A DNA stretch of 58,499 nt from a virus (Duplodnaviria; Caudoviricetes), in the IMG/VR virus record IMGVR_UViG_3300022744_000032, positions 1-58,499 of that record. The stretch is one strand, 5' to 3'. Under the pieces are notes generated by a model. That model was given only the letters and a program-made list of their open reading frames with translations, searched no databases and was not told where the DNA came from. Below are positions 11,832 to 34,141 of the stretch, piece by piece; within the stretch, counting starts at the first letter, position 1, and the number at the start of each line of letters is the position of its first letter. The translations under genes were made by a program, and so were the position numbers.

Positions 11832-11854
11832 CTCACGAGCAGGATTATTTTCTA

Positions 11855-12895: not shown

Positions 12896-12896
12896 A

Positions 12897-15257: not shown

Positions 15258-15265
15258 TCGTTACC

Positions 15266-21042: not shown

Positions 21043-21057
21043 GGAAATTCCCCACAG

Positions 21058-21100: not shown

Positions 21101-21106
21101 CTGGTG

Positions 21107-21312: not shown

Positions 21313-21515
21313 AAATGTAGGGTTATTTCCTTATGAAAAAAATTTCATAAATTTTTGTGTGAGTTGTGGTTGTGCACTTCGTAGCCGTAGCGGCAGTGAC
21401 AATGGACGAAGGGCAACAACCTATGTCATGGATCAGGAATTTGAACCTAGTCTTTTAGGATCCATATAGGGGGTTTTTATTTTTAGACAATATCGTCTAT
21501 CACAGGAGAAATAAC

Positions 21516-21785
21516 ATGGCTACTCTTCACATGATCGTTATCATTTTCGTTGTCGTTACCCACATCGTTGGCACGCTGGCTGGTATCAGCCTTATGCAAC
21601 TGCAAGGCAACAAACCGCGGAAATGGATGGCCATCGCAAACCCACTGTGTCTCGCTGGCTATGTGGCCCTCAGCTACCACTGGCTGGCAGCAGGGATCGT
21701 GATCTCGATCCTGTCCATTATCGGCCTCCTCGGCACTGACGCAGTAATCAATGCGGTCAAAGCAATGAACGCCGCCAAGGCATGA
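21516..21785 (+). CDS. Early membrane protein
   Basis: RBS CAGGAG; hydrophobic segments. Confidence 0.7.
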   Translation: MATLHMIVIIFVVVTHIVGTLAGISLMQLQGNKPRKWMAIANPLCLAGYVALSYHWLAAGIVISILSIIGLLGTDAVINAVKAMNAAKA

Positions 21786-21844
21786 CCAACTGCCCCCGCA
21801 TAGGGGGCTTTTGTCCATGGACCATTATCCATGAGGCAACCACC

Positions 21845-22129
21845 ATGAACCGTCAACGCAAAGTCGAATCCTATTATTTCACCACCAAATCCGTGCAAGC
21901 ATCCGACGGGAACCAGTACATGCACACGGTCCTTGTCAACAAGCACAACCCGGCGGAAGCCTGGATGCACTTGTTCGGCGGCGACGCCGAGGACATGGAC
22001 AGGCTCCAGAATGCTATCAAGGCGCGCGGGTGGTTCAACACGAAATGCGGCTGGAAACAGCTGCGCGTGCCCTTGATGGCAGTACCCACTACTACCCCAC
22101 AGGGTGAGCAACTATCGTTAAACCTGTAG
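21845..22129 (+). CDS. Early hypothetical protein
   Basis: RBS GAGG before ATG 21845. Confidence 0.7.
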   Translation: MNRQRKVESYYFTTKSVQASDGNQYMHTVLVNKHNPAEAWMHLFGGDAEDMDRLQNAIKARGWFNTKCGWKQLRVPLMAVPTTTPQGEQLSLNL

Positions 22130-22201
22130 CCACACAGAGCGATATCCAAGGCCCCTGATAGGGGGTTCTTGGTCATGGTCAATTAACCACGGAGAATTGC
22201 C

Positions 22202-22492
22202 ATGATTATTATCCCTATCATTCATACGGTTTTTATTATCGTGCTCATGTTCAGTGTCAAGTCCGAGAAACACGGTCGGTGGCTCTTGCGCTGGGCCATG
22301 AACAACATGATCACGTTCGAGGTCCTTGTCGGGCTATTCCTCGCATCAACACTCGGCGCGTTTGGCGGCGTGTTAGGCGTCTCGGAAGCGTCCATTGTCA
22401 TGGGCATGCTCTTCATCGCGAACCGCATCATCGGATACGGCTATCGCAACATCGAAACACTGAAACAGGAATGGAACAATGCCCCCGACTAG
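22202..22492 (+). CDS. Early membrane protein
   Basis: RBS GGAG; hydrophobic segments. Confidence 0.7.
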   Translation: MIIIPIIHTVFIIVLMFSVKSEKHGRWLLRWAMNNMITFEVLVGLFLASTLGAFGGVLGVSEASIVMGMLFIANRIIGYGYRNIETLKQEWNNAPD

Positions 22493-22599
22493 GGGGCTCT
22501 TGTCCATGGACATGAACATGTTCCACGACCACAACCCCGCACCCCGTAGGCGCCGAAACGACGGCGGAAATAGGTAGTTTCGAAACGATTTTACACTTT

Positions 22600-22830
22600 C
22601 GTATCGTAATACATCTGTTACCCTACTTTTTTCAACAAAAACAACGCGGTAACGGTAACAGATAAAACACCTCCCTACACATGAGACATGGATAAGGATA
22701 TGCACCCTTACCTCAGATAAAAAAATATATCTCTCTCCTATAAGAGTATGCATTTTTATCTGTTATCTGTTACCGCCTTTAGAATCAATCACTTACCGGT
22801 AACAGATGTTTTCATCTGTTACCCAATTTG
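22600..22830. other. Candidate replication origin (iteron-like 10-mers plus IHF site)
   Basis: ATCTGTTACC at 22613, 22765, 22814; inverted GGTAACAGAT at 22654, 22798; AATCAATCACTTA (22783-22795) fits the IHF consensus; AT-rich non-coding. Confidence 0.55.
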
Positions 22831-22992
22831 CTTGCTCTCCAGGTAAGGAACCACTAACGCACTAAAATAGGGCATTTTCTGCGGCAAATACGTAGCCGTA
22901 CGGTGTCCCAATACCCCTACAGTGTAGTAGGACATTGCAGTGCAATAGGGGGCTTTTATTTATGGTCAATTCCGGCCATTCAGGAGATTTTT

Positions 22993-23082
22993 ATGCCAAT
23001 CGACATCAACGTGGTCATCGACCAGATCGAAGAAAACGGCCCAGAATCCGTGGAACATTACCTCGACGAGGTCGAGATCTAG
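22993..23082 (+). CDS. 29-aa acidic early peptide
   Basis: MPIDINVVIDQIEENGPESVEHYLDEVEI; RBS CAGGAG; flanked by two TAGGGGG elements. Confidence 0.65.
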   Translation: MPIDINVVIDQIEENGPESVEHYLDEVEI

Positions 23083-23139
23083 CACCACACCAAGGCCCCC
23101 GAATAGGGGGTTTTTGGTCATGTCATTCACATAGGAGAT

Positions 23140-23523
23140 ATGACCGTGGGCCTTTCACTTTCACTCCGTATCGACGCTATTACCACTAACTACGAAGAGC
23201 CGCTGGCGAGCGACCCGTTCTGGCAAGAAGATCAACGCCTCGACAACGTGTATGGAACAACATCGCGTATCCGGAATCTGATAACCCACTTAACTGGTTC
23301 CGTCTTTCGCCCGAATGTCCACATCGCCAGCAGCGATGACACTGGCGAGTTCATTTTCGAGGATATCCACACAGGAATTGCCGCCCTAAAAGAGCTGCAA
23401 TACTTCCCGATGCTGGAAGCAATCATCCCGCTACTTCGTTATTACGAGCGCCTGAATCTTATTGATTCGGCGAACAGTGATTACTACACCACTAGATACC
23501 GCCTTGTTGTTTGTTACCACTAA
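23140..23523 (+). CDS. Early hypothetical protein
   Basis: RBS TAGGAG; bounded by TAGGGGG elements. Confidence 0.65.
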   Translation: MTVGLSLSLRIDAITTNYEEPLASDPFWQEDQRLDNVYGTTSRIRNLITHLTGSVFRPNVHIASSDDTGEFIFEDIHTGIAALKELQYFPMLEAIIPLLRYYERLNLIDSANSDYYTTRYRLVVCYH

Positions 23524-23577
23524 CCCCTTAGGGGGTTTTTGGTCATGGGCAATGTCGCCTATCACAGGAGAACCATC

Positions 23578-24483
23578 ATGCAAACTATCCATATCAATCA
23601 CATCCTTGACGCTGCTGTCGAGAACCTCGACGGCTATCCGAAAACCAGCATGGCCTACGCCATCCTGAGCTTCGGCGTGAGCCAGGCAATGTTCCCGCTG
23701 GTCAAAGGCTGGAGCGCACGCAACACAGACGATGAACAGCGTTCGTACCAAGGTATCGCACTCGCCGCGTGGGCCGCCATGGAACTGCCGGTCGCACAAC
23801 GCCGTGAAAGCATCCTGAACGCGATCACGAACTATCTGGAGTACAGCAAACGCCCTGCCGTGGATGGAGCCAAAATCGGCGACGCGTGTGACTGGGCACT
23901 GGCCGGTACCCAGCAGAGCATCTTCGGTGACACGACACAGGACGTGATCCATGTCAATAACAACCGCGAGCAAGCCGTTGAGAAACGCATCGTGGAAAAC
24001 GCCGCCGCGTGGACACACCAGATCCTGATGGCCATCGAGGGGCAGATGACCGCCCATACCGATGCACCACTGGGACTGGAGCCACAAACGCTGAAAAACC
24101 TGTGCGAGCGTCTGTACAACAAGGCACGGATACTGACCGTGGACGCGCAGGCGTTCATTGTCCGTACTCACCAGCGGGTGAACACGGGCAAGGTCATGCC
24201 CAGCAAGGCCCACGGCATGCTGGAAAATATCGCAACCGCGAAACTCACCCTGGGTGCGCTGGAAACGATTGGCAAGACCATGGACGCGGAGTATGCCCGG
24301 CTTGAGGAAATCCTCGAGCGCCAAGGTAACGACGACAGTGCACTGGCTGAACAGGGTGCACAGGCGTTCCGCGACAGCGTGGACATGGAGCAATTCATTG
24401 AAACGCACGCGTTGAATGGTGACGCGATCGGGAAAAACTACGTGACCGGTCGCCCACGTCCTGAACAGATCGTGCAGCATTAA
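23578..24483 (+). CDS. Early hypothetical protein (301 aa, helical)
   Basis: RBS CAGGAG before ATG 23578. Confidence 0.75.
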   Translation: MQTIHINHILDAAVENLDGYPKTSMAYAILSFGVSQAMFPLVKGWSARNTDDEQRSYQGIALAAWAAMELPVAQRRESILNAITNYLEYSKRPAVDGAKIGDACDWALAGTQQSIFGDTTQDVIHVNNNREQAVEKRIVENAAAWTHQILMAIEGQMTAHTDAPLGLEPQTLKNLCERLYNKARILTVDAQAFIVRTHQRVNTGKVMPSKAHGMLENIATAKLTLGALETIGKTMDAEYARLEEILERQGNDDSALAEQGAQAFRDSVDMEQFIETHALNGDAIGKNYVTGRPRPEQIVQH

Positions 24484-24556
24484 CCTCCAACCGAGCAGCG
24501 CCCCTGAATAGGGGGCGTTTGCTCATGGTCACTTTCGACCATACAGGAGATATATT

Positions 24557-24778
24557 ATGAAACATTTCGTGAAATTCAGATTGGCACTGGCAGCTGCCTT
24601 GTTAGGGCGCACTGCCGCCATGGCAGTCGTGGTCCGTGTCAATGGCGAGATCATTGCCGTGACGTTTACCTCGTCCGTGTGGCACGCCGCGTCCGTCAGT
24701 GCAGCGACGGAACTGTACGGCACCAAAGACCCGGACATGAACCCGGACAAGCAACCGTCAGACACGCTAGCTGCGTGA
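24557..24778 (+). CDS. Early hypothetical protein
   Basis: RBS CAGGAG. Confidence 0.65.
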   Translation: MKHFVKFRLALAAALLGRTAAMAVVVRVNGEIIAVTFTSSVWHAASVSAATELYGTKDPDMNPDKQPSDTLAA

Positions 24779-24791
24779 GGAGGACACAGCG

Positions 24792-24992
24792 ATGTTCGAC
24801 ACAAGCTGGAAAGGCACCCTATACCGGATCCTGCTCGGAATGGCGCTGTTTTTCATCATCCCGATCACCCTGAAACTGACCGCGTACTTGCTTGGCGGCA
24901 TGGCCGCGGTCGTGATCACGGGCGGGATACTAATCGGTGGCATCTACGCCATGATGCCGCGTACTGAAACTGACACGAGGAAACCATCATGA
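24792..24992 (+). CDS. Small membrane protein
   Basis: RBS GAGGAGG; two hydrophobic segments. Confidence 0.65.
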   Translation: MFDTSWKGTLYRILLGMALFFIIPITLKLTAYLLGGMAAVVITGGILIGGIYAMMPRTETDTRKPS

Positions 24993-25321
24993 AACATCCA
25001 ACTTATACGCCGGCAACATTGAAAGAGTCCATGGTCAGTGACACGAGCGGGCTTGTGGCCGCAAGTCTCCTGATCGGCGCGGTGCTCTTCCCCGAGGTGG
25101 CCATGGGGACGATCCTCGGACTCGGCATGGCGCAGGCCACTCGTAGTACCTACCGTCTGGCGCGCGCAGGCATCACGTTGTATAAACTGAACAAACAACC
25201 GGCTGAACGCCATGAGGTGGACCATGAAACTGACCATGACATCAACCCTGTTATTGTGCCTGCTATCCCTCGCCGCCGGGGAACAACTCGGCGAACAAAA
25301 GAAACAGCAGCAATTCACTGA
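24989..25321 (+). CDS. Hypothetical membrane protein
   Basis: ATGA coupling to upstream gene. Confidence 0.6.
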   Translation: MKHPTYTPATLKESMVSDTSGLVAASLLIGAVLFPEVAMGTILGLGMAQATRSTYRLARAGITLYKLNKQPAERHEVDHETDHDINPVIVPAIPRRRGTTRRTKETAAIH

Positions 25322-25649
25322 CCAGCTCATGGACACGGCCCATAACACGGCCGCGGAAGTATTCAACAAACAGCTGGCCGCGCAACTGGCTACGGCCAGT
25401 GGATACCGCGTGGTTGTCCAGAGGGATAGGCAGTCTGGTGACATGGTCACGTACGTGAAACCCTACACGCTATCGCACGTGGAAACCAGGGACAAAACGC
25501 CACAAGTCAGTCTGGAGCAGCATGAGATGGTGTGCTACTCCGCTGCGGTGGACAGCGACCTGACCCGTGCCGCATTGGCTGCCTACAAGGAAACGTACGG
25601 AGATAAACCCCCGACACCGAAACAGCCGGTAACACCTTCTTCACTCTGA
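25224..25649 (+). CDS. Hypothetical exported protein
   Basis: RBS GAGGTG; N-terminal signal-like stretch. Confidence 0.6.
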   Translation: MKLTMTSTLLLCLLSLAAGEQLGEQKKQQQFTDQLMDTAHNTAAEVFNKQLAAQLATASGYRVVVQRDRQSGDMVTYVKPYTLSHVETRDKTPQVSLEQHEMVCYSAAVDSDLTRAALAAYKETYGDKPPTPKQPVTPSSL

Positions 25650-25687
25650 CCGAAACCCCCCGCTTGGGGGGTATTCGTCATTTTCCA

Positions 25688-25717
25688 TTGACAAGGAATA
25701 TAGGCACTGCCTATTAT
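25688..25717 (+). promoter_or_regulatory. Sigma70-like promoter overlapped by operator; reads toward the cassette array
   Basis: TTGACA, 18 bp spacer, TATTAT; operator TATAGG-CACTG-CCTATT 25699-25715. Confidence 0.7.
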
Positions 25718-25745
25718 CCGCGCACATTCACAGGAGACCCATCCC

Positions 25746-25958
25746 ATGTCAGAAAATGAATTCTGGTTAAAACTCTGGCTAGCCTGCATCGCGGGCCTTG
25801 TCGCAATCGTTGTCATTATTTCAACATATCAGTATTACGACGACCATCTCGTTGTCCAGATGGTAGAACATGGCGCAGATCCACTAAAAACACGCTGCAT
25901 TATGGGTAACATAACTACTAACATGTTACCCATATGCACCCTTATCGCGACCCATTGA
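25746..25958 (+). CDS. Small membrane protein
   Basis: RBS CAGGAG; TM segment and GADPLKTRC motif. Confidence 0.65.
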   Translation: MSENEFWLKLWLACIAGLVAIVVIISTYQYYDDHLVVQMVEHGADPLKTRCIMGNITTNMLPICTLIATH

Positions 25959-25959
25959 C

Positions 25960-26160
25960 ATGGACACTACCCTGAGGCTATGCAGGAACTGTAAATACTG
26001 GGGACGCGACTACAAAGGCGTCTGCGACTTTCCAGAAGAAACAAACATCAAAAATTCCGAACACGCATTTATTCGCATCACTGTACTCGATGATTCTGAT
26101 TTGAATATTTTTCTTCATACCGGACCAGACTTCGGCTGCGTTAAATTCCAGGAGAAATAG
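25960..26160 (+). CDS. Small Cys-rich phage protein
   Basis: CRNCKYW...GVC...TGPDFGCVKF. Confidence 0.65.
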   Translation: MDTTLRLCRNCKYWGRDYKGVCDFPEETNIKNSEHAFIRITVLDDSDLNIFLHTGPDFGCVKFQEK

Positions 26161-26161
26161 T

Positions 26162-26377
26162 ATGAGCATGTACGACATTGAAATTAAAACCGAAAAGCTT
26201 GAAGAAGTATTGAAAACGCTGGCAGACGAAACTGGCGGCAGGTGCTTGGAGACTTCCGTTTTCGTCGGTGCTATACACGGTAAGCCAATACGCTTGACTG
26301 TAATGACAGCGGAAGAAGCAGAGGATTCACACGAATATGACGAAACAGACACTAGATACAACTGCATTGACGCATAA
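26162..26377 (+). CDS. Acidic hypothetical protein (probable cassette remnant)
   Basis: Stop TAA lies in the attC R' box at 26372-26378. Confidence 0.65.
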   Translation: MSMYDIEIKTEKLEEVLKTLADETGGRCLETSVFVGAIHGKPIRLTVMTAEEAEDSHEYDETDTRYNCIDA

Positions 26378-26427
26378 CACCGGAATTCAGCGGCGGCGAA
26401 GCCGTCCGCTGGAATGACTTGTTATGC
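26372..26427 (-). repeat. attC site 1
   Basis: - strand GCATAAC-AAGTC-ATTCCAGC...GCTGAAT-TCCGGT-GTTATGC. Confidence 0.85.
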
Positions 26428-26446
26428 GTAATGTATTGGGGTTTTT

Positions 26447-26719
26447 ATGATCGTTGGCGTAGCGGTAAAGTTTGGAGATAGCATAGAAGTGCGATTGCCG
26501 AAACCAAACCGGCATTGCCACTGCTTTTGGTATTTTGCTGAAGTAACAGGACTGGAAACTCCGCCAGCAGGATTAAAGACTGGCGGAGAAAATCAAGGCT
26601 TTTATACGCACACAGGGCGATACCTTAACAGGAAGCAGGCTTTGAAGTATGTGAAGAGAATCAAGCAGCCTGTTATTGGAAAGCCAAGAGCACATTTATT
26701 CAGTGAGGATTTGTGGTGA
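26447..26719 (+). CDS. Cassette ORF, phage-type hypothetical
   Basis: RHCH...QGFYTHTGRYLNRKQA...LFSEDLW pattern. Confidence 0.75.
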   Translation: MIVGVAVKFGDSIEVRLPKPNRHCHCFWYFAEVTGLETPPAGLKTGGENQGFYTHTGRYLNRKQALKYVKRIKQPVIGKPRAHLFSEDLW

Positions 26720-26823
26720 TGTACGGCGACGACGCTTGGAAAGTTTTAGAGATTATCAGCTATATAGTTGGAGTGCTTGCGCTGATTGGAATATATGCAC
26801 TTGGCAAATGGTTATTTACATGA
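26719..26823 (+). CDS. Cassette ORF, 34-aa single-TM peptide
   Basis: MYGDDAWKVLEIISYIVGVLALIGIYALGKWLFT; TGATG coupling. Confidence 0.55.
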   Translation: MYGDDAWKVLEIISYIVGVLALIGIYALGKWLFT

Positions 26824-26824
26824 C

Positions 26825-26900
26825 GCATAACACAGAGGCAAGCCGCTGGCGAAGCCAGTCGAGCGAATGAAATGAGCGGCGCTTGGCCGACTTGTTATGT
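26825..26900 (-). repeat. attC site 2
   Basis: ACATAAC-AAGTC-GGCCAAGC...GCTTGCC-TCTGT-GTTATGC. Confidence 0.85.
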
Positions 26901-26928
26901 ACAAACACAAAAGTTGAGAGGTTTTGAA

Positions 26929-27279
26929 ATGATCACACAACACACACCGGAGCCGTGGCCAGAGTTTAAGAAAGTGCTAAACCAGCGTTTTGGCGAGCCG
27001 CCACAGATGATGCTTGACGAAATAGACTACATCCGCGCCCGTGCCTGCGTGAACGCATGCGCAGGATTGAGCACCGAGAATCTGGAGAATAACATTCTGC
27101 TAAAGGATGGGCTGCATAGCCTCAATCAGCGCATAAGAGACGCGGAACAAAAGCATGCAGAGCTGCTTAAAGCTGTCGAGCTTGCGTATTCGGCACTCGG
27201 GTTGCCCGCTGCACGTGGATATATGGAGGCGCAGCACATACTGGAAACGGCAATTTGCGCGGCGAAAGAAAGTACATAA
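26929..27279 (+). CDS. Cassette ORF, HTPEPW...ACVNACAG phage protein
   Basis: RBS GAGAGG; stop in attC R' box. Confidence 0.75.
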   Translation: MITQHTPEPWPEFKKVLNQRFGEPPQMMLDEIDYIRARACVNACAGLSTENLENNILLKDGLHSLNQRIRDAEQKHAELLKAVELAYSALGLPAARGYMEAQHILETAICAAKEST

Positions 27280-27327
27280 CCCAGAGCTAACCGGCGCGAA
27301 GCGTCCGAGTTGAGCGCGTTGTTATAC
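27274..27327 (-). repeat. attC site 3
   Basis: GTATAAC-AACGC-GCTCAACT...GGTTAGC-TCTGG-GTTATGT. Confidence 0.85.
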
Positions 27328-27353
27328 GGCATTTTAACCAAGAGGAAAACAAG

Positions 27354-27614
27354 ATGGCAAAGTTTAGAAAGAAACCTGTAGTAATCGAAGCGGTGAAATT
27401 TACCGGAATCAATGAAAGGCTGCACGATGAGCTAAACGAGTTTGTTGGCGCAGAACTTGAGGTGCGCGAATACAATAACTTGCTGTGTCTGGTCATCCCA
27501 ACACTAGAAGGCGAGCATATTGCAACACCAGGAGACTGGATAATTAAGGGCGTGAAAGGCGAGTGCTACCCATGCAAGCCTGACATATTCGCAGCGACAT
27601 ACGATGCCGTATAA
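27354..27614 (+). CDS. Cassette ORF, conserved phage protein
   Basis: FRKKPVVIEA...TLEG...PGDWIIKGVKGECYPCKPDIF. Confidence 0.8.
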   Translation: MAKFRKKPVVIEAVKFTGINERLHDELNEFVGAELEVREYNNLLCLVIPTLEGEHIATPGDWIIKGVKGECYPCKPDIFAATYDAV

Positions 27615-27666
27615 CACTGGAGTTCAAGCGACGCCGTAGGCGGTCGCGTGCAACGACTTGTTATGC
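27609..27666 (-). repeat. attC site 4
   Basis: GCATAAC-AAGTC-GTTGCACG...CTTGAAC-TCCAGT-GTTATAC. Confidence 0.85.
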
Positions 27667-27694
27667 GTAAACATTTTAACGAGAGGAAACAAAT

Positions 27695-27880
27695 ATGACA
27701 CAGCAAGAGTTTGATACAACAAAATGGAAATGCGGAATGAAGGCCGTATATAAAGGAGAAGTATATCCTGTGGCATCGTGTGATTTTGAGGAGCGCCTTG
27801 TTGGACTTTACGGTGTTGCTCTTGGAACAGATGATCATACATGGGTGCGTTGCGAGAATGTGGCGATAGTTGACGCATAA
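27695..27880 (+). CDS. Cassette ORF, hypothetical
   Basis: RBS GAGG; stop in attC R' box. Confidence 0.7.
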   Translation: MTQQEFDTTKWKCGMKAVYKGEVYPVASCDFEERLVGLYGVALGTDDHTWVRCENVAIVDA

Positions 27881-27958
27881 CGACTGAGCTTAGGGGCAGG
27901 CCGACCAACGGGAGGGCTGTCCAGTGGCGAAGCCACGGCCTAGAGCGACTTGTTATGC
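27875..27958 (-). repeat. attC site 5
   Basis: GCATAAC-AAGTC-GCTCTAGG...CCTAAGC-TCAGTC-GTTATGC. Confidence 0.85.
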
Positions 27959-27989
27959 AACACAGAATTTAACTACTAAGGTGAAACAC

Positions 27990-28292
27990 ATGTCAGACCT
28001 ACAGAAAATACCAGAGCCTATTGCGCACATGTTTCCGAGTGATATTGAGAGATTCCGCGAGTCTGAAACATTCGCACAGGCGTATTCTATAGAAGTTGGA
28101 AACCCAAATGAAACCAGCGTGGAACTTTGTTTGCAGAGCGATTTAATTTCCGCTGCTCAGAATAGCCACAAGTTTTTGATGGCACTAAAAGAGGTGCGTA
28201 ATGATGTTGACATGATGATGCGCGGAAGATTTGTGAATCTTGAAGACGTAATTAAAGAGCTTGACGCTGCTATTTCACAGACTGGTGCATAA
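27990..28292 (+). CDS. Cassette ORF, hypothetical
   Basis: RBS AAGGTG; stop in attC R' box. Confidence 0.7.
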   Translation: MSDLQKIPEPIAHMFPSDIERFRESETFAQAYSIEVGNPNETSVELCLQSDLISAAQNSHKFLMALKEVRNDVDMMMRGRFVNLEDVIKELDAAISQTGA

Positions 28293-28334
28293 CCCAGAGC
28301 TAACCGGCTTGTCCGGTTGAGCGAGTTGTTATGC
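28287..28334 (-). repeat. attC site 6 (short, 48 bp)
   Basis: GCATAAC-AACTC-GCTCAACC...GGTTAGC-TCTGG-GTTATGC. Confidence 0.8.
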
Positions 28335-28355
28335 GTTAATAACTACGGAGGATTT

Positions 28356-28499
28356 ATGGAATTTTTTAATTGGCTTAAATGGTTTTTGTACGAATGTAGA
28401 GTGTGTAGGCACGAAGCCGGAGAGTGGAAACATTGCGAGTCTGGTATGAGAAAGATTAGACACTGCAAAAAGTGCGGCAAATGTCTTGATTTAATATGA
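28356..28499 (+). CDS. Cassette ORF, small Cys/His-rich protein
   Basis: CRVCRH...CKKCGK; RBS GGAGG. Confidence 0.65.
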   Translation: MEFFNWLKWFLYECRVCRHEAGEWKHCESGMRKIRHCKKCGKCLDLI

Positions 28500-28500
28500 C

Positions 28501-28575
28501 GCATAACACCGGAGGTAAGCCGTGAACGAGCGAAGCGAAGTCCAGCCGCAGGCGACCTTGATGCGGTTGTTATAC
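28501..28575 (-). repeat. attC site 7
   Basis: GTATAAC-AACCG-CATCAAGG...GCTTACC-TCCGGT-GTTATGC. Confidence 0.75.
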
Positions 28576-28602
28576 GGCCACTAATTACAGGGGATTTACA
28601 CA

Positions 28603-28875
28603 ATGAAAGACGCACCACTTAACGCTCGGATTGAAGATGGTGAACTGGTTATTTCCATCGGTATTGACACTCTATGCCATGCGGTAGAAGTTGGACGAAG
28701 CTACGGAATGGGTGAAATCACGATACACAACAGGGACGTTTTTATTAAAGAGATACTGACTGAGCTTAACGACGAAAGCGAAGACGGCTCGACTATGATT
28801 CACCGGATGCTTGACGATGCTGCATCACAGGCCATCGAAAACGGCGCAGAAGGCGCGGACTACGATGCCGTATAA
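28603..28875 (+). CDS. Cassette ORF, acidic phage protein
   Basis: ELVISIGIDTL...ESEDGST..HRMLDDA; stop in GTT core. Confidence 0.75.
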   Translation: MKDAPLNARIEDGELVISIGIDTLCHAVEVGRSYGMGEITIHNRDVFIKEILTELNDESEDGSTMIHRMLDDAASQAIENGAEGADYDAV

Positions 28876-28926
28876 CACCAATTGGGCACCACTTTTGGTG
28901 TATAAAACCCTGCTGACGTATAAAAC
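28870..28926 (-). other. attI-like site at the head of the array
   Basis: Core GTTATAC without attC arms; degenerate L box TGCCCAA 5 bp away; direct repeats GTTTTATAC at 28900-28908 and 28918-28926. Confidence 0.5.
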
Positions 28927-28995
28927 ACCGTGCATCAGTAGGTAAATTAAACAGATAGAAATTGTGGTGCAAATAAATGCACCAAAGGAGGCGGT

Positions 28996-29193
28996 ATGAA
29001 AGACAATACACCAGCGTTTCCATACCAAGTTAGTACGCAATCAGGCATGGACTTGCGCGATTACTTTGCAGCAAAGGCGATGCACTCTTTACTTATCGCG
29101 CATGCTAATAGCAGCGGATGGAGCAAAGATGCTGTTGCATCACAATCATACAAAATGGCAGACGCAATGATTGCAGAGAGGAACAAGCCATGA
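28996..29193 (+). CDS. Conserved small phage protein
   Basis: PAFP...GMDLRDYFAAKAM...YKMADAMIAER. Confidence 0.8.
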   Translation: MKDNTPAFPYQVSTQSGMDLRDYFAAKAMHSLLIAHANSSGWSKDAVASQSYKMADAMIAERNKP

Positions 29194-29603
29194 CACAGCA
29201 CACACCAGAGCCGTGGCACACAGTAGACCATAGTTGGGAATACACTGGCATATATCCGTCAGTTGGTTCACGCATTGCAGTTTGCGAGATTAACCAATCA
29301 TGCACAGAAGATAATCAGGATGAATATGAGTCTATCAATGACGCAAACGCCGCCCGCATAGTCGCCTGCGTGAATGCGTGTGCTGGTGTTGGCAATGAAA
29401 CGCTAGAAAAAATCGCATCAGGTGAAATGGACGGATCAGAAATTTTCGAGCTTGCGAAAGTTAAGCAACAGCGCGACGAGCTGCAAAAAGAGTTACTGTC
29501 ACTAGTGCGTGACATTCAATGCAGCAGTGCTAGGCAGTTTATAACCGCAGAGCGACTGAAGAAGGCTGAAACCATTGCCAAGGCGCAGGAGGCACAGTCA
29601 TGA
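29190..29603 (+). CDS. HTPEPW...ACVNACAG phage protein (paralog of 26929-27279)
   Basis: Shared motifs; ATGA coupling. Confidence 0.75.
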   Translation: MTQHTPEPWHTVDHSWEYTGIYPSVGSRIAVCEINQSCTEDNQDEYESINDANAARIVACVNACAGVGNETLEKIASGEMDGSEIFELAKVKQQRDELQKELLSLVRDIQCSSARQFITAERLKKAETIAKAQEAQS

Positions 29604-29821
29604 GTTATCAGCTTACGCGCGAAGGTAACGCAATTTTTCCTGCAACCGCAACAATACGCGCAGTAATACGAGGAAACAGCATGTCAATATGCGCCAAATG
29701 CAGGCATTTGTCAGATCAGTGCACTGGGGTTTCTAAAATAACTTCTGGCAGACCGCGTATTCAGTGTGTTACCAGTTGCGATGGGTTTGAATTAGTTGAA
29801 TCTAAGGAGGTGCAGCCATGA
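29600..29821 (+). CDS. Small Cys-rich hypothetical protein
   Basis: ATGA coupling at both ends. Confidence 0.6.
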   Translation: MSYQLTREGNAIFPATATIRAVIRGNSMSICAKCRHLSDQCTGVSKITSGRPRIQCVTSCDGFELVESKEVQP

Positions 29822-30024
29822 GCGAACTGCAAGAGGTTAGAGCCTACGTAGAAGAAAAGTATCCGAGGGCTTGTGTGACTATCTTCCTAACCGCTGATAA
29901 GGAAGATATCACTAACGAGGAAGATCTGCTTAAAAAAGACTGGCACGTCAGTTATTATAGATCAGAAGTAGTAGACAAATATCCTGACTATACTGCTGTG
30001 CTGGCATTAGTAGAATTTTGGTAA
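29818..30024 (+). CDS. Hypothetical protein
   Basis: RBS AAGGAGG. Confidence 0.65.
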   Translation: MSELQEVRAYVEEKYPRACVTIFLTADKEDITNEEDLLKKDWHVSYYRSEVVDKYPDYTAVLALVEFW

Positions 30025-30110
30025 AGAGAAGCAGCCATGAACGATATACAGTCAATATGTTTAGCAGTTATAGTTGCAGTAGCTTGGGTAGTCTTTTTGT
30101 TGAGGTGTTT

Positions 30111-30371
30111 ATGAGTAAAAAACTACAAGTTTGGACATGTAAAATTGTTATCGAAGCAGATGAGCTACCAAATGGGTTCAATTACCCTCCTAGAATGGCC
30201 GCAGAAAAAGCAATAGCGTCTGCTGGATTTAATGTGCTGATGAATAGCTCTGGCTGGGGCGGTTCTCTGGATGAATTGGATGTTATGTATTTGCAGAGTA
30301 ATGGTTACAAGATAGGTAGCGACGTTTACATAGCAGGATTGGTCGATATTTCTGAAGATGTGAGGCATTGA
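30111..30371 (+). CDS. Hypothetical protein
   Basis: RBS GAGGTG; WTCKI...PPRMAA...SSGWGG. Confidence 0.65.
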   Translation: MSKKLQVWTCKIVIEADELPNGFNYPPRMAAEKAIASAGFNVLMNSSGWGGSLDELDVMYLQSNGYKIGSDVYIAGLVDISEDVRH

Positions 30372-30373
30372 AT

Positions 30374-30682
30374 ATGAGCGAACAAGACGAACAGATCAGG
30401 AAGAAGTTTGAGCAAGCTTTTACAGTTCCAGAAGGTGTACGCTGGTGCAATCATCAAGAAATGTATACCGCCATTGATAAGTTTAGCGAAGACGATGGAA
30501 GAAATACCGTCCTTCAAAACGCAAAGCATAAAGCATACAAAGCAGGCCGCGAGAGTGTTGTCGTGGAGTTGCCTGCTGCAGAGAAGCAGACGTCACCGTA
30601 CACATGTTATGAAAACGGGTGGAACGATATGCGGCAAGAGACTATTGAAGCAATCAAAGCAGCAGGAGGCAGAATCAAGTAA
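30374..30682 (+). CDS. Hypothetical phage protein
   Basis: AGRESVVVELP...AIKAAGG pattern. Confidence 0.65.
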   Translation: MSEQDEQIRKKFEQAFTVPEGVRWCNHQEMYTAIDKFSEDDGRNTVLQNAKHKAYKAGRESVVVELPAAEKQTSPYTCYENGWNDMRQETIEAIKAAGGRIK

Positions 30683-30757
30683 ACAGAACACAGCCCCCTA
30701 CGTGCAGGGGCCCAAATCCTGCCCCTGGTCAGCCACATAGGGGGCTGTTTTCTGTTT
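30681..30757 (+). terminator. Long stem-loop (terminator or processing site)
   Basis: AAACAGAACACAGCCCCCTACGTG pairs with CACATAGGGGGCTGTTTTCTGTTT around an inner CAGGGGC/GCCCCTG hairpin. Confidence 0.55.
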
Positions 30758-30764
30758 ATTTTCC

Positions 30765-30794
30765 TTGACAATGGACATAGGCATTACCTATATT
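30765..30794 (+). promoter_or_regulatory. Sigma70-like promoter overlapped by operator
   Basis: TTGACA, 18 bp spacer, TATATT; operator CATAGG-CATTA-CCTATA 30776-30792. Confidence 0.7.
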
Positions 30795-30820
30795 ACCGCC
30801 CACGTACAGGAGCGCACCAA

Positions 30821-31375
30821 ATGATCGCGAAAGAAAGCGAAGCAGCAAAAGGCAATTTCACCCAACGCTGTTTACTTGCACTGGGAAGTCTTTGCGCCAA
30901 CGCGCCCTCCTCCACCTTTTTTACCTGCTCTGACATCATCACGCGCCTGATCGGGAACGAGGACTGTGACCAGGAAACATTCTTTTGCCTGGTTAATGCT
31001 TGTAATGCGTCACTTAGCCAACGCTACACACGCAAACACGACGGTTTGTTCCGGACCACGAAAAAAATCACTCCGAAATTGTCACGTTTTCCTACAGCGA
31101 AAGCTGCACTCGGATACCGACTGGGTATACCTGTTGAATCCCCGATAATCAATCCGGATACACTGGCTTCTGCACGTGCTGCATGTGCGAATCCCACGAC
31201 AAGCGCCGATATTCATCAGTTCATCCAGAACGCATCCGTGCCCCAACTCACAGATTTGATTCTGGAAATCACTGACGCGATCGTGAACAAGCACCACAGC
31301 ATAATGAATGAGGCAGCAACAGCACGATCAAAATTGAAAGTATTACGCGACGCTGTCGCAGAGGTGGACGCATGA
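30821..31375 (+). CDS. Hypothetical protein
   Basis: RBS CAGGAG; first gene after promoter. Confidence 0.65.
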   Translation: MIAKESEAAKGNFTQRCLLALGSLCANAPSSTFFTCSDIITRLIGNEDCDQETFFCLVNACNASLSQRYTRKHDGLFRTTKKITPKLSRFPTAKAALGYRLGIPVESPIINPDTLASARAACANPTTSADIHQFIQNASVPQLTDLILEITDAIVNKHHSIMNEAATARSKLKVLRDAVAEVDA

Positions 31376-31466
31376 TCCTGTTCCCTTCACAACTCATTTT
31401 TCTGATTGAAGTTATTAACGCTGTACAAAAATACCACGCACAACAAACTGTTGAGGAACAGCCACA

Positions 31467-31829
31467 ATGAAAACATTTCTTGTTATTTATGTTGCTACTT
31501 TTTTACTGCTACTCACAGCGTGCAGTAAAGCACCTGAACCACCCCCGATAGCGGAAGCGACACCGCCACAAATCATTTATGAACAGATTCCACAGCCTGT
31601 GCAACAGCAACCGCAAATAGTCTATGCACAACAACCACAACAACCTGTGGTGGTGCAACAAAGTAGTCACGATGGCCTGCTCACTGGCATGGTCATCGGG
31701 CACATGATGAGCGGCGGCTCCAGTGGCGGGAGTAGTAACCGCACCACCGTGAACAAAACCGTGGTCGTGAACAAGACTTACTCACGACCGTCTTCATCAC
31801 GATCGTATTCCAGCTCACGCAGGAAGTAA
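31467..31829 (+). CDS. Lipoprotein
   Basis: Lipobox LTAC; Gln/Pro linker; GLLTGMVIGHMMSGG; Ser/Arg tail. Confidence 0.75.
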   Translation: MKTFLVIYVATFLLLLTACSKAPEPPPIAEATPPQIIYEQIPQPVQQQPQIVYAQQPQQPVVVQQSSHDGLLTGMVIGHMMSGGSSGGSSNRTTVNKTVVVNKTYSRPSSSRSYSSSRRK

Positions 31830-31832
31830 TGT

Positions 31833-32039
31833 ATGTACCGCGTCACTACCAGTGCCCGCCGCATAAACGGTACGACCCTGTTCATGTTCACTGTGTATTT
31901 CGAAGAGACACCTGTTGCGATTTCTGAAGCAATTTATGGATCAAAAGGACTGGCAGAACAACATGCACAACAATTCATTGACCTGAACAAGCATGCACGC
32001 GGATACCAACAAATCACACTCAGAGGCACGCCAGCATGA
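31833..32039 (+). CDS. Hypothetical protein
   Basis: Co-oriented ORF. Confidence 0.55.
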   Translation: MYRVTTSARRINGTTLFMFTVYFEETPVAISEAIYGSKGLAEQHAQQFIDLNKHARGYQQITLRGTPA

Positions 32040-32067
32040 ACGTCGTACCTTTTTTTATTCTTTCGAT

Positions 32068-32084
32068 AATAGGTATGGCCTATA
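32068..32084. promoter_or_regulatory. 17-bp operator
   Basis: AATAGG-TATGG-CCTATA. Confidence 0.6.
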
Positions 32085-32184
32085 TCGGGCATGAACCGTA
32101 CCACGACAAGATCCTGGGCACGGTCCTGTACTGGTGGAGTCTGGCCATGATCATCTGGGGTACTAACAAACACAGGAGAAAGTC

Positions 32185-32505
32185 ATGAGTTTACCCGACG
32201 TAATCAATGTCATTTGCACTGTCACGCACAACAACAGTGTGCTTGGAAAAATCACAGTTCCTGTTGATATCAAACAGATCACTGACGAGTACGACAGCCT
32301 GGAAGAGGTTGATTCTGCGAATGTCCTGGATGATATCGCGACCAACGTCCTGGTTGAAATGGAACCTGAACAGGAAGAAATCGTGGACAACTGGCTTGCT
32401 GCCCATGCGCAAGTACAAGAACTCCAGCGTGAAAACAAACCCTACACACCGCTTAATGATGTCGAAGAGGGCCAGTTTATTTCCAGCGCAGAGATGTTCC
32501 TGTAA
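32185..32505 (+). CDS. Acidic hypothetical protein
   Basis: RBS CAGGAG; Asp/Glu-rich. Confidence 0.7.
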   Translation: MSLPDVINVICTVTHNNSVLGKITVPVDIKQITDEYDSLEEVDSANVLDDIATNVLVEMEPEQEEIVDNWLAAHAQVQELQRENKPYTPLNDVEEGQFISSAEMFL

Positions 32506-32774
32506 TGGTTTACGTACCAGACAAAGAAAAGAAACGTGAACAAGCGCGGGAATGGTGGCGCAAATACGGTCGCAGCCGGAATGAAAACGGAGAACGTTCC
32601 ATTTTTGATCCAGGCGAAGACCAGGAATTATTTTTCAAACGCGACATTTTACTACGCGTGAAATCATTAAAGGACACCGCCCATGCCGCAATCTTTTGCC
32701 GAGATGTTGAAACAGAGCCCCGAGATGCAAACGCAACTACGGGAAGCGTACGAAAAAGCGCTCGCAAAAAATGA
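32505..32774 (+). CDS. Hypothetical protein
   Basis: TAATG coupling. Confidence 0.55.
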   Translation: MVYVPDKEKKREQAREWWRKYGRSRNENGERSIFDPGEDQELFFKRDILLRVKSLKDTAHAAIFCRDVETEPRDANATTGSVRKSARKK

Positions 32775-33120
32775 AGACATATTTACTTGGCAATCACTGC
32801 CCTTTTTCACAGGGTATGTGCGATATCTTCTGGAGTATTGTGAAACGGAAAAAACTCCATGACCCCCGATACCCATTCTCAGCGCTGGTATTACAGATAC
32901 TTTTTTATTCAAATTCGTCAATTCTGACGACACTGATTCGTCTCCGCAGCACAACGAATCAGGCCCACCCGCTGCACAACCCGGAGCGTCTCAAATGAAC
33001 GAGAACGATATCCAGGCGCTTGACGCATTATTGGCTCATGCTGACCGACACAATTCTTTCGTCGGCATGGTTATTATTGCGGATGGTGCTTGCCCTCAAC
33101 CCACTCCACAGGAGTTCGAC

Positions 33121-33330
33121 ATGTCACAACCTCTCGTAGAAAGCAAAACACTGGTCCAAGGCGTTGATGTTGCCAAAGCCAGCAAAGACCAACTGATCGA
33201 TATGCTGAAACGTCTTGAAAAAGAAGAGACCGATCTGGCTGCGATCCGCACCGAAAGCACAAGCATCCAGGCACGTATCGCTGAAATCGGCGCTGCACGT
33301 ACCGCGGTAGCTCGCGCGCTCGACGCGTAA
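33121..33330 (+). CDS. Small coiled-coil protein
   Basis: RBS CAGGAG before ATG 33121. Confidence 0.65.
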   Translation: MSQPLVESKTLVQGVDVAKASKDQLIDMLKRLEKEETDLAAIRTESTSIQARIAEIGAARTAVARALDA

Positions 33331-33345
33331 TCCCTGAAGTAAACG

Positions 33346-33380
33346 AAAGCAGGCGCACTAACAACGCACCTGCTTTTTTC
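33346..33380 (+). terminator. Putative rho-independent terminator
   Basis: AAAGCAGG...CCTGCTTT stem followed by T-run. Confidence 0.55.
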
Positions 33381-33413
33381 TCACAACCTTGTTCACAAAT
33401 AGGAAAATGAACC

Positions 33414-33695
33414 ATGATCAATGTAAAAGTAGTGAAAGTTCCAGGCAATGCTACTGACCAGACCCTGAACGATGGCGCAACCGCTGCCGACGCCTTGCGT
33501 GTTGCCGGCCTGTCCCGCGCCAGCAACGAAGAGTTGCGTATCAACGGCCAGGTCCAGGCTGACACAACTGTGTTGCGCGACGGCGATCGCGTCATGCTGG
33601 TGCAGGGCGCAAAAGGCAATGCAGCCAAAAAACCGGCGGCAAAACCGGTAAAGAAACCTGCTTCAAAGCCAGCGAAAAAACCGGCCAAGAAGTAA
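33414..33695 (+). CDS. Ubiquitin-like (beta-grasp, ThiS/MoaD-like) protein with Lys/Ala/Pro-rich C-terminal extension
   Basis: INVKVVKVPG...GATAADAL...LRINGQ...LRDGDRVMLV-QGAKG|N pattern; upstream of E1, JAB and E2. Confidence 0.85.
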   Translation: MINVKVVKVPGNATDQTLNDGATAADALRVAGLSRASNEELRINGQVQADTTVLRDGDRVMLVQGAKGNAAKKPAAKPVKKPASKPAKKPAKK

Positions 33696-33701
33696 TCTGA
33701 A

Positions 33702-34141
33702 TTATCCTTCTCCAGGATGTGTATACATCAGTACGGGTGCCAACACATACCGTAATTCATGTCTATCGAGTGCTACACATATATTTTCCTGCTCGACAGG
33801 AATCTCGTGAACATAGATTGGACAGTAAGTCGGGTCTCGCGGCGCAGGAACATGCAATAACATCCTGGAGGGGGATAACTTTTTTGTTGGCTCAAGTCAG
33901 CGCCCGACGGCCGGCTGCTATGAGGTTCCCTGCTTTGACAGGCAACCGTCAAACGTCGCGAATCTGGGTTCCAGGTATCCATCGGGCGCTGACTTGAGCC
34001 AACAGAGATAATAAAAAGAAACACTATTTGGGTACTGCTACGCATACGCGTCTTGAGCGCCTATCGACGAACATACCAAAAAACCCAGTAGGGGCACTGC
34101 GCCCCGTTGATCGGGGGAGTAATAGTGTTTCCTTTTACTAT
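33702..34141 (+). ncRNA. Candidate structured RNA array: three tandem domains closed by long stems
   Basis: Stems 33702-33720/33860-33878, 33885-33907/33982-34004, 34012-34028/34121-34137. Confidence 0.6.

Follow-up and report, generated by a model that had tools for sequence, protein, structure and literature searches.

An attC Array among Small Phage Genes

The window analyzed here is the whole of a 58,499-base viral record rated 93% complete by CheckV. Seven imperfect-palindrome sites and one lone box lie at 26372-28876, interleaved with small ORFs (table 1), and each site has two arms enclosing a loop, with a left box NNATAAC about 5 nt before the first arm and a right box GTTATNN 5–6 nt after the second. 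The ORFs at 26162-26377 and 27695-27880 have no match in family searches, and the covariance models described below detect no attC to the left of the former.

Table 1. Features of the array and its surroundings (bit scores from covariance models R1–R3, see text)
Feature	Position	Strand	Details
Hairpin, then T-rich tail	25647-25680		Just upstream of the promoter candidate
Sigma-70-like promoter candidate	25688-25717	+	TTGACA-18-TATTAT, 11/12; upstream of the small-gene block; consensus match only
Backbone ORF, 71 aa	26162-26377	+	TAA inside the first box; distal border of the array
attC site 1, 56 nt	26372-26427	-	R3 59.0 bits, E = 8×10−12
Cassette with two overlapping ORFs	26447-26823	+	26447-26719 (90 aa, phrog_839); 26713-26823 (36 aa, hydrophobic)
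attC site 2, 76 nt	26825-26900	-	R3 28.4 bits, E = 3×10−4
Cassette ORF, 116 aa	26929-27279	+	TAA in box; paralogue of the non-cassette ORF 29190-29603 (BLASTP E = 2×10−9)
attC site 3, 54 nt	27274-27327	-	R3 41.1 bits
Cassette ORF, 86 aa, phrog_419 family	27354-27614	+	PHROG E = 3×10−33
attC site 4, 58 nt	27609-27666	-	R3 42.7 bits
Cassette ORF, 61 aa	27695-27880	+	
attC site 5, 84 nt, branched loop	27875-27958	-	R3 42.2 bits; fold z −3.2
Cassette ORF, 100 aa	27990-28292	+	
attC site 6, 48 nt	28287-28334	-	R3 45.1 bits; fold z −4.2
Cassette ORF, 47 aa, Cys-rich	28356-28499	+	Weak zinc-ribbon match
attC site 7, 75 nt, degenerate	28501-28575	-	R1 19.9 bits, R2 18.5 bits, R3 no match; fold z −0.35
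Cassette ORF, 90 aa	28603-28875	+	phrog_31817 and related families
Lone R'-type box without hairpin	28866-28876	-	attI- or attG-like array end

The record was searched on both strands with three covariance models. R3 was built from only 77 attC sites beside intI in bacterial genomes, in an alignment guided by R2, and R1 from 16 phage sites only; R1 and R2 include sites of the window, so that their window scores are partly circular. R3 finds six of the seven sites (28.4–59.0 bits), all on the minus strand, and nothing else in the 58.5-kb record, missing only site 7; R1 and R2 each recover all seven, and site 2 scores 38 bits with R1 though it lies outside the training set of that model. At E ≤ 1 all three models match only these sites in the 58,499 bases; beyond that threshold these sites recur weakly on the plus strand, and two further matches have E = 7.5–8.2. 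The minus strand outscores the plus strand by 7–53 bits at every site (67.9 versus 14.8 bits with R2 at site 1, which has a DNA fold z of −4.4). In the reciprocal search, R1 gave 35 matches in 66 integron loci (928 kb), every one on the attC top strand and upstream of intI, including the aadA1 attC of R100, and 2 matches in 456 kb of other phage DNA. The earlier note had read seven canonical attC sites on the minus strand and had proposed a covariance-model check on both strands; its reading is borne out.

The structure of the sites agrees with these scores. In the joint alignment, 86% of cells are paired, compared with 25–38% when the partners are slid, and two-sided (compensatory) changes are seen in all eight pairs of the L helix. 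The extra base on the 5' arm of the minus-strand reading is present in all seven window sites (24/28 sites overall), and the spacers are 5 nt on one side and 5–6 nt on the other in six sites, 6 and 7 nt in site 7. The outer-box consensus of attC is RYYYAAC for R'' and GTTRRRY for R'; the NNATAAC/GTTATNN boxes of all seven sites each depart from it at one position (A for Y, T for R). The L boxes of site 3 are identical to those of an attC adjoining an IntI1-like gene in a Dechloromonas MAG (L150), and those of site 7 pair poorly (5/7). The sites of the array belong to the attC family. A CALIN, in the definition of IntegronFinder, is a group of at least two neighbouring attC on the same strand that have no IntI near them. 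With seven sites within 2.2 kb, all on the minus strand, and no IntI candidate in the 58.5-kb record, the array is a CALIN.

Cassette Ends and Gene Orientation

Complementary cassette ends such as GTTATGT/ACATAAC had been noticed earlier, and all of the pairs then quoted are present. When each right box is compared with the reverse complement of the next left box, runs of 9, 9, 12, 9, 8, 9 and 10 nt are found, whereas with its own left box the runs are just 9, 6, 5, 5, 7 and 7 nt. Box variants thus match across the gene in all seven cassettes, which is, as far as sequence can tell, the signature of a cassette that was once circular; no excised-circle junction was seen. The array contains eight left and seven right boxes, and over 10 nt the lone box is the reverse complement of the right box at site 7. 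Because the attC top strand corresponds to the minus strand of the window, the array consists of seven attC plus a lone R' box, an ending also found in four other viral arrays. On the minus strand an attI search found two 9-nt direct repeats 18 nt apart, the second 32 nt from the lone box (the repeats in attI1 of R100 are 19 and 32 nt apart); comparable repeats are absent from the ends of the four other viral arrays.

As stated in the earlier note, the genes lie opposite to the attC sites: every ORF with a ribosome-binding site and a PHROG match is on the plus strand. All genes are therefore antisense to attC, and the recombinogenic bottom strand is the coding strand. The antisense arrangement holds for 6/6 intervals in the window and 40/46 intervals in nine viral arrays, whereas in real integrons the same crude measure gives 38/41 sense intervals. 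In a canonical cassette the ORF is promoterless, is on the attC top strand and is followed by attC; in this array the linked attC lies upstream of its gene in gene direction, and a cassette runs from the hairpin through ribosome-binding site and ORF to a stop codon that lies within the crossover box or just ahead of it. The TAA falls within the box at six of the eight ORF ends (26377, 27279, 27614, 27880, 28292 and 28875), in line with what had been noticed for most ORFs, and the other two end in TGA just 5' of it (26823 and 28499). This mirror-image design is common to the record and about a dozen other viral contigs and is not shared by real integrons. We did not find systematic inversion in print; an antisense case is possible among the 17 phage CALINs in the supplementary tables of PMC9892861, a source consulted in part.

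Recombinases, Promoter and Gene Content

No IntI had been seen in the window, and TIGR02249 likewise gave no candidate in the 58.5-kb record. Its only tyrosine recombinase (49690-50664) lies 21 kb from the array and is a generic phage integrase (43.7 bits against a cut-off of 220; 27% identity to IntI1 over 52 aa), so the phage may be temperate; no intI adjoins the array, as one does in a complete integron. Among five other array-bearing records, four are without a tyrosine recombinase, two of which are rated 100% complete. A promoter had been placed at 25688. Its match to the consensus stands, but such matches in the region are no more numerous than in shuffled sequence. The phage-type look of the small genes is upheld by matches of cassette genes to phage families (PHROG) and by a backbone paralogue of one of them; the cassette genes are also co-oriented with the flanking phage genes.

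Units Shared between Contigs

Unrelated contigs and metagenomes have gene units in common, and the breakpoints fall at the boxes, which supports the exchangeable units proposed earlier. The unit 27354-27614 shows 0 differences in contigs from X2 and X5, metagenomes of other studies, and the identity stops at 27615, at the boxes. Similarly, L007 and L008 share one unit of 98% identity bounded by boxes, and the identity of L016 with L022 runs as far as the TAAC of the box. In 3/3 comparisons this TAAC is where the right-hand breakpoint falls. It is also evident that the hairpin bodies to the left and to the right of an identical unit are not the same in L007 as in L008, nor in the window as in X8 and X5. 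Two to three comparisons of this kind require either crossovers at both boxes or short-homology recombination. A simple picture of host IntI does not predict them; bottom-strand IntI crossovers alone would keep one body linked to the gene. We did not find exchange breakpoints at both boxes in print. A single joint that skips from 26426 to 28502 (X2) is weak, being one short contig of 90% likeness. No close relative of the phage was found, and attC are absent altogether from the two isolates nearest to it in terminase.

Comparison with Known Systems

Integrons are known as bacterial devices, and their cassettes carry antibiotic resistance and, in recent papers, anti-phage defence. The bacterial integrons compared here (IntI1 and IntI1-like; In2 of R100; Thauera, Dechloromonas and Methyloversatilis loci) share with the array the same site architecture, near-identical inner boxes, the layout of n attC + 1, complementary cassette ends and stop codons often inside the box. 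Unlike them, the array lacks intI and a Pc promoter and has no clear attI, its genes are antisense, its cassettes are small (214–453 bp) and its content is of phage type.

As far as the consulted parts of the source go, phage attC clusters did not appear in print until 2023, when they were likened to bacterial arrays (Qi et al. 2023, PMC9892861). In the virulent phages TJE1 (Tetrasphaera), PH101 (Pseudoalteromonas) and P12002L (Polaribacter), attC occur without IntI and with small genes of unknown function between them, as here, and IntI1 recombined five of six phage attC sites, other than those of this array, into attI1 (PMC9892861). Our models recover exactly the three published TJE1 sites. 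These are on the same strand as the genes, overlapping orf1-3 at their 3' ends, which is the canonical sense layout, in contrast to the antisense layout and seven cassettes here. Evidence of unit sharing between contigs or metagenomes also sets this array apart from the phage CALINs as presented in the consulted parts of PMC9892861.

Two further systems bear on the lone box and the strand. GWT sites in double-stranded DNA serve IntI as insertion points for cassettes, whose orientation is determined by the strand (10.1101/2022.09.11.507474). Such attG insertion resembles the array in its lone G/TT site without a hairpin; it is known, in the consulted parts of that source, from E. coli chromosomes and not from phage DNA, and here seven cassettes lie at one site. 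Later loss of attC by replication slippage is possible according to the same source, and would fit the attC-free small genes just downstream of the array, including the cassette-gene paralogue. In an inverted chromosomal integron of Vibrio cholerae, with the attC bottom strand on the lagging-strand template, excision rises from <7×10−5 to 3×10−2 (Richard et al. 2024, PMC13108822). This shows that it matters which strand bears the attC bottom strand, but in V. cholerae the whole array with its genes is inverted relative to replication, whereas here only the genes are inverted relative to attC.

Origin and Exchange of the Cassettes

We consider it likely that the array is a CALIN of seven small cassettes in a probably temperate phage, transcribed by the phage and served by host IntI in trans together with a second route of exchange. 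The cassettes would have been inserted successively at a GTT-type site that derives from the stop-codon region of a phage gene whose end is at 26377; seven attC and a lone box are the layout expected from successive insertion at one such site. A suitable recombinase is not encoded by the phage or by most other array-bearing viral records, and a host integron integrase acting on the folded plus strand may excise and insert the cassettes, while the block would be transcribed by the phage itself, perhaps from the candidate promoter. Some exchanges would break at the other box by the second route, for which rare top-strand events or short-homology recombination are possible.

An unlikely alternative for the exchange is that homologous or microhomology recombination between co-infecting phages shuffles the units, with the 10–16-nt boxes as linkers and the attC-derived hairpins as mere homology patches. 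Breakpoints at both boxes, with differing hairpin bodies on each side, would follow readily from it. Site 7 resembles a hybrid in which two sites were joined within the loop, and its inner arms mismatch each other, as if each were half of a different site; ORF 28603-28875 and the unrelated ORF 27354-27614 end in the same 16 nt; and a PD-(D/E)XK nuclease is encoded at 42788-43552. However, homology alone leaves unexplained the asymmetric attC features kept in six of the seven sites (extra base, spacers and compensated L boxes), and it gives no reason for array ends with a lone box. Nor does it account for right-hand breakpoints that fall at TAAC, the canonical place of cleavage, in all three comparisons, and the boxes are very short for homologous recombination.

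The hairpins could also be mainly RNA elements of a polycistronic transcript, either RNase III-like processing sites or mRNA stabilisers, with attC likeness secondary. The early genes of T7 have RNase III processing hairpins between them, and as in T7 there is one sense-strand hairpin with an internal loop per pair of small genes, in a block behind a promoter-like site; attC are moreover thought to be weak terminators (PMC9892861). Yet none of the hairpins is followed by a T run, and a scan of Rfam release 15 (4227 families) gave nothing at gathering thresholds. An RNA role predicts neither boxes that are complementary across the gene instead of inside the hairpin, nor strand-specific matches to real attC, nor the exchange of units at boxes, and the T7 sites lack RYYYAAC/GTTRRRY boxes, cross-gene complementarity and attC likeness. 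Such a role is very improbable as the main explanation, but RNA and attC roles could coexist. We give the slimmest chance to a piece of a bacterial chromosomal integron that was captured, as in Vibrio anguillarum phages, or misassembled. Such captures are already in print (PMC9892861), the phage integrase would suit a temperate phage, and the L boxes shared with the Dechloromonas MAG integron point the same way. Against it stand the antisense layout in 6/6 intervals, the phage families and backbone paralogue of the cassette genes, their co-orientation with the flanking phage genes, and the recurrence of the design in viral records that are complete, one of which has terminal repeats. Run X1, though possibly the source sample, holds 99% of the words of the stretch, which also counts against this origin.

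Returning to phage cassettes mobilised by host IntI, the consistent mirror-image design, absent from real integrons, points to a separate cassette economy on the phage side that uses the host integrase, and suggests a phage-owned pool of swappable cassettes that is maintained and traded. This would let phages swap small early genes singly, also between unrelated phages, and the genes swapped are plausibly for host takeover or counter-defence. It would also offer a handle on how strand choice and orientation tune cassette turnover and on how genes first acquire attC sites.

We put forward tentatively, as possible but doubtful, the broader idea that freshwater and wastewater phages keep a reversed cassette pool that is shuffled at high rates and in which cassettes are born in place. 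In a reversed cassette the gene would follow the hairpin, and crossover would take place exactly at the stop codon. Since the bottom strand is the coding strand, genes oriented with the replication fork would place it on the lagging-strand template; in that case the shuffling of phage arrays would reach the high rates of the artificially inverted bacterial integron. Phage genes could turn into cassettes in place, and, if so, the arrays would be a place to watch cassette birth, an open question for integrons. A candidate is the phrog_419-family gene, whose native Val-stop ending would supply the crossover box and whose upstream box would be a 12-nt reverse copy of the coding end. Among 80 viral loci of this family, the gene stands alone in about 75 and is flanked by attC in about 5.

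Covariance models place the sites in the attC family

Seven sites of 48–84 nt each are found within 26372–28575, each between two small ORFs on the plus strand. Each consists of a left box (NNATAAC), about 5 nt, an arm, a loop, a second arm, 5–6 nt and a right box (GTTATNN), and an eighth, lone left box terminates the last ORF (see the table). An earlier note had read these sites as attC on the minus strand. A covariance model built from 77 bacterial sites of intI-bearing loci and from no others (R3) agrees, as it detects six of the seven sites at 28.4–59.0 bits, all on the minus strand; it misses site 7 and gives no further match in the window at E ≤ 1. We also built a model from 16 short phage sites only (R1; 4 from the window and 12 obtained by box-pattern search from eight viral contigs) and applied it to plasmid R100 and to 65 of 80 genome loci encoding IntI1 or proteins 73–100% identical to it, all turned so that intI lies on the plus strand. 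R1 gives 35 matches at E ≤ 1, including the attC of aadA1 in R100, and all 35 are on the minus strand upstream of intI, the strand and side on which the cassette array lies; 456 kb of unrelated phage DNA yield 2 matches at E ≤ 0.1. With a mixed phage and bacterial model (R2) and filters off, the minus strand scores higher than the plus strand at every site. Rfam returns nothing at gathering thresholds, and a filters-off scan of 21000–34000 finds no attC remnants around the array.

The extra base is located in the 5' arm of the minus-strand reading in all seven window sites and in 24 of the 28 sites examined (simple pairing search). In an alignment of 56 sites from phages and bacteria together, 86% of the cells pair, compared with 25–38% when the partners are slid, and all eight pairs of the inner helix show two-sided changes; the structure had been used in fitting this alignment. 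A direct comparison shows that the inner boxes of the window sites are common to real attC sites, and the L boxes of sites 3 and 6 are those of an attC adjoining an IntI1-like gene in a Dechloromonas MAG. From these sequence comparisons we conclude that the window sites are of the attC family, with the top strand corresponding to the minus strand of the window. Folding of the single-stranded DNA is far better than that of shuffles for sites 1, 5 and 6 (z = −4.4, −3.2 and −4.2) and moderately better for sites 2–4 (z = −1.5 to −2.0), whereas site 7, with inner arms that do not match each other, folds no better (z = −0.35).

Features of the window (R2 scores in bits, minus/plus strand)
Feature	Coordinates	Strand	Remark
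Large ORF	312–5714	−	1800 aa
Major head protein, portal, large terminase	10457–17851	−	terminase 15266–17851
Best sigma-70-like match	25688–25717		11/12
Backbone ORF	26162–26377
attC site 1	from 26372	−	67.9/14.8
attC site 2	from 26825	−	40.1/11.2
Cassette ORF	26929–27279	+
attC site 3	from 27274	−	55.6/8.1
Cassette ORF	27354–27614	+
attC site 4	from 27609	−	53.8/12.2
attC site 5	from 27875	−	50.6/10.2
attC site 6	from 28287	−	55.2/14.9
attC site 7	from 28501	−	18.5/11.1
Cassette ORF	28603–28875	+
Lone left box	28866–28876
Two direct repeats	28899–28926		9 nt each
ORF outside the array	28996–29193
Paralogue outside the array	29190–29603
DNA polymerase, primase, helicase	38191–45909	+
HTH protein	47715–48353	+
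Tyrosine recombinase (generic phage integrase)	49690–50664	−
Large ORF	54202–57873	−	1223 aa

Cassette ends and array layout

All the box variants quoted for the complementary cassette ends in the earlier note are present. Across the intervening ORF, each right box agrees with the following left box, read as its reverse complement, over 9, 9, 12, 9, 8, 9 and 10 nt, versus just 9, 6, 5, 5, 7 and 7 nt for the partner box of its own site. Most ORFs were said to stop within the box, and the box TAA is indeed used by 6 of the 8 ORF ends, the other two having a TGA immediately 5' of the box; each ORF is preceded by a Shine–Dalgarno sequence of its own. Two unrelated cassette ORFs end in the same 16 nt (27600–27615 and 28861–28876, Tyr-Asp-Ala-Val-stop). 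This tail is the native C-terminus of the phrog_419 family and is present in its free-standing homologues; ORF 28603–28875 apparently gained the tail along with the box.

On the minus strand, the lone R' box is followed by seven units, each of an antisense ORF and an attC, and beyond the R' of the last attC the sequence enters the backbone ORF at its end. With eight boxes of R' type and seven of R'' type, the array has the n + 1 layout of an integron, and reading it on the plus strand would require a truncated last site. Four other viral arrays have a lone-box end of the same kind. The implied empty site joins the stop-codon region of ORF 26162–26377 to the sequence at 28877, giving G|TT on the minus strand; IntI is reported to insert cassettes at GWT sites in double-stranded DNA, the strand setting the orientation (10.1101/2022.09.11.507474).

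To the right of the lone box are two direct repeats, which are box-like with two extra A's. Read on the minus strand, they are 18 nt apart and the nearer one is 32 nt from the box, much as the integrase-binding repeats of attI1 in R100 (19 and 32 nt). However, comparable repeats are absent from the ends of the four other viral arrays, and because the geometry does not recur there we take an attI-like site as no more than a possible reading of the attI1-like spacing. Alternatively, the repeats could belong to a promoter that serves the next gene.

Cassette genes run antisense to their attC sites

We confirmed the observation of an antisense attC array. The earlier note had put all cassette ORFs on the plus strand and called them phage-type. 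The plus-strand ORFs encode 57–121 aa and those on the minus strand at most 53 aa; three of the plus-strand ORFs have PHROG matches (E = 4e-10 to 3e-33), and cassette ORF 26929–27279 is paralogous (E = 2e-9) to 29190–29603, which lies just outside the array and has no attC. Because ORF lengths, PHROG matches and the backbone paralogue all put coding on the plus strand, every gene is antisense to its attC, as that note had stated.

Orientation was further counted from the longer ORF in each interval between adjacent attC matches. Of 41 distinct intervals in real integrons, 38 are sense, whereas the nine viral arrays have 46 intervals, 40 of them antisense: 6/6 in the window, and in the other viral loci 8/8 (L002), 7/7 (L005), 4/4 (L001), 4/4 (L003), 7/10 (L007), 2/3 (L006), 1/2 (L004) and 1/2 (L008). 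In loci carrying a homologue of ORF 27354–27614, with the homologue on the plus strand, all 20 R3 matches are on the minus strand (10 in L055, 6 in L081, 2 in L059 and 1 each in L016 and L022). Inversion is therefore a recurrent design in these viral contigs, which do not sample viruses at random: they were retrieved through the site type or the gene family of the window itself, and several have adjacent sample numbers. The complete viral records behind L003 and L007 each have two separate attC arrays, which in the former are on opposite strands.

attC clusters have been described in phages before: Qi et al. (2023; PMC9892861) report 17 clusters without an integrase (CALINs) from a screen of 10,705 phage genomes, some of them in virulent phages, and recombination of 5 of 6 phage attC sites by IntI1. 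The CALIN published for Tetrasphaera phage TJE1 was recovered exactly, with its 3 sites and none besides in 49 kb. In contrast to the window, TJE1 is sense, with its sites on the gene strand and overlapping the ends of orf1–3. In a search limited to one literature library, the paper of Qi et al. (2023) was the only relevant one on antisense or inverted phage arrays, and no description was found of arrays with genes systematically antisense to attC, nor of exchange units with a box as boundary on either side.

The first eight viral loci compared contain no match to any cassette ORF; the sole match there is to the non-cassette ORF 28996–29193. In IMG/VR, homologues of ORF 28603–28875 come from one short contig, and Pfam gives only sub-threshold matches to the cassette ORFs. 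In the protein atlas, the product of ORF 27354–27614 is entered as a hypothetical protein of viruses; PGDYG is a weak lead there (26% share). Its family is mostly free-standing, an attC flanking or adjoining the homologue in about 5 of 80 loci with both R2 and R3. The block at 26–31 kb differs from its flanks in its low G+C content (0.45–0.49) and positive GC skew. The small genes without attC that lie downstream of the array may be former cassettes, an idea drawn only from the one paralogue pair and the shared composition.

Shared units have breakpoints at the boxes

Two different viral contigs, L007 and L008, have one unit of 494 nt in common (98% identity). On the upstream side the identity begins with the spacer and right box of the site there; downstream it ends right after the left box, and the hairpin bodies differ on either side. 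Between 5 and 8% of the words of 25600–29400 occur in 16 runs of 9 other studies of freshwater and wastewater (the probable source run excluded), shares that, like the uncovered parts of the stretch, are uninformative on habitat beyond the four runs, from four studies, that were compared at the contig level. The part common to these four is the unit 27354–27614: X2 shows no difference from the window over 27309–27615, X5 none over 27318–27615, X8 none over 27347–27577 and X10 four over 27330–27626. The X2 contig continues past 27615 into a different attC-like body, and X8 has a different body before 27319. Similarly, viral contigs L016 and L022 are 98% identical across an attC and the homologue of ORF 27354–27614 and diverge directly after the box TAAC. 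Thus, the right-hand breakpoint is at the canonical cleavage place in all three comparisons.

The left-hand breakpoint is at the right box in L007/L008, X8 and X5. Crossovers by IntI on the bottom strand alone do not predict these left-hand breakpoints, because after such crossovers the gene stays joined to one of the hairpin bodies. Two explanations are possible: the sites, which are nearly symmetric, are sometimes cut on the top strand, an event reported to be about 1000 times rarer at known sites (PMC13108822), or short-homology recombination takes place as well. At the sequence level, the arm mismatch of site 7 and the identical last 16 nt of two ORFs point to recombination inside or next to the sites.

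Two other candidate events were rejected. A joint of 26426 to 28502 in one X2 contig is too weak for an excision (a side of 40, 90% likeness), and summed depths of 200–1100 over sites 3 and 6 indicate only that hairpins of this kind abound in those samples. L016 and L022, otherwise 90–98% identical, also differ by 547 nt; this is not a cassette gain but an inserted gene of homing type (L022 1536–2082, adjoining an attC array), with HNH-like Cys/His motifs recognized by eye. At about 3280–3300, L022 has a left box, 5 nt and a right box with the hairpin body absent, as expected if a folded attC had been deleted by replication slippage.

Recombinase, transcription and a possible reason for the inversion

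The earlier note saw in the array shuffleable accessory genes, transcribed from the phage's own promoter and mobilised by a host IntI or another recombinase. Its identification of the array is sound, whereas we infer what moves and transcribes the cassettes. As it stated, IntI is missing, and none is encoded in the record. The record's integrase has its best NCBIfam match at 43.7 bits against a cut-off of 220, and shares 27% identity with IntI1 over 52 aa. Among five other array-bearing viral records, with 4–14 attC each, four lack a tyrosine recombinase; of these four, two have an estimated completeness of 100%, and one of the two has terminal repeats. Because the record has no IntI and only a generic integrase, and four of the five other records lack a tyrosine recombinase, the economical reading is that the recombinase is supplied by the host. 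Since integron integrases are SOS-induced, prophage induction and IntI expression could coincide.

The best sigma-70-like match of the region is behind a terminator-like hairpin, and the region has no excess of such matches over shuffles. No T run follows any of the attC hairpins.

If the replication fork moves in the direction of the genes, their coding strand would be the lagging-strand template. In Vibrio cholerae, having the attC bottom strand on the lagging-strand template is reported to raise excision from <7e-5 to 3e-2 (PMC13108822). The plus-strand GC skew of the block is compatible with the lagging-template idea but no proof of it. Inversion would also silence phage cassettes in a host integron and host cassettes in the phage.

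The phage and its relatives

The window corresponds to an entire IMG/VR virus record of 58,499 bases, which is linear, with an estimated completeness of 93%. It encodes a PD-(D/E)XK nuclease, and judging from its gene content the phage may be temperate, because a tyrosine recombinase and an HTH protein are encoded. A megablast search of 25700–29000 against 50,697 phage records gives zero matches, and IMG/VR contains no relative of the neighbouring 716-aa protein. Judged by the terminase, the closest isolates are Aeromonas phage phiA008 (48%) and Pseudomonas phage KPP25 (42%), and attC is missing from both. Two ORFs on the minus strand are very large, and the 1223-aa one has no Pfam match. The large terminase is also unusually long (861 aa), with terminase-family matches in two separate stretches, and the nearest phages cover 54–57% of it in two pieces; it may contain an insertion or an extra N-terminal domain.
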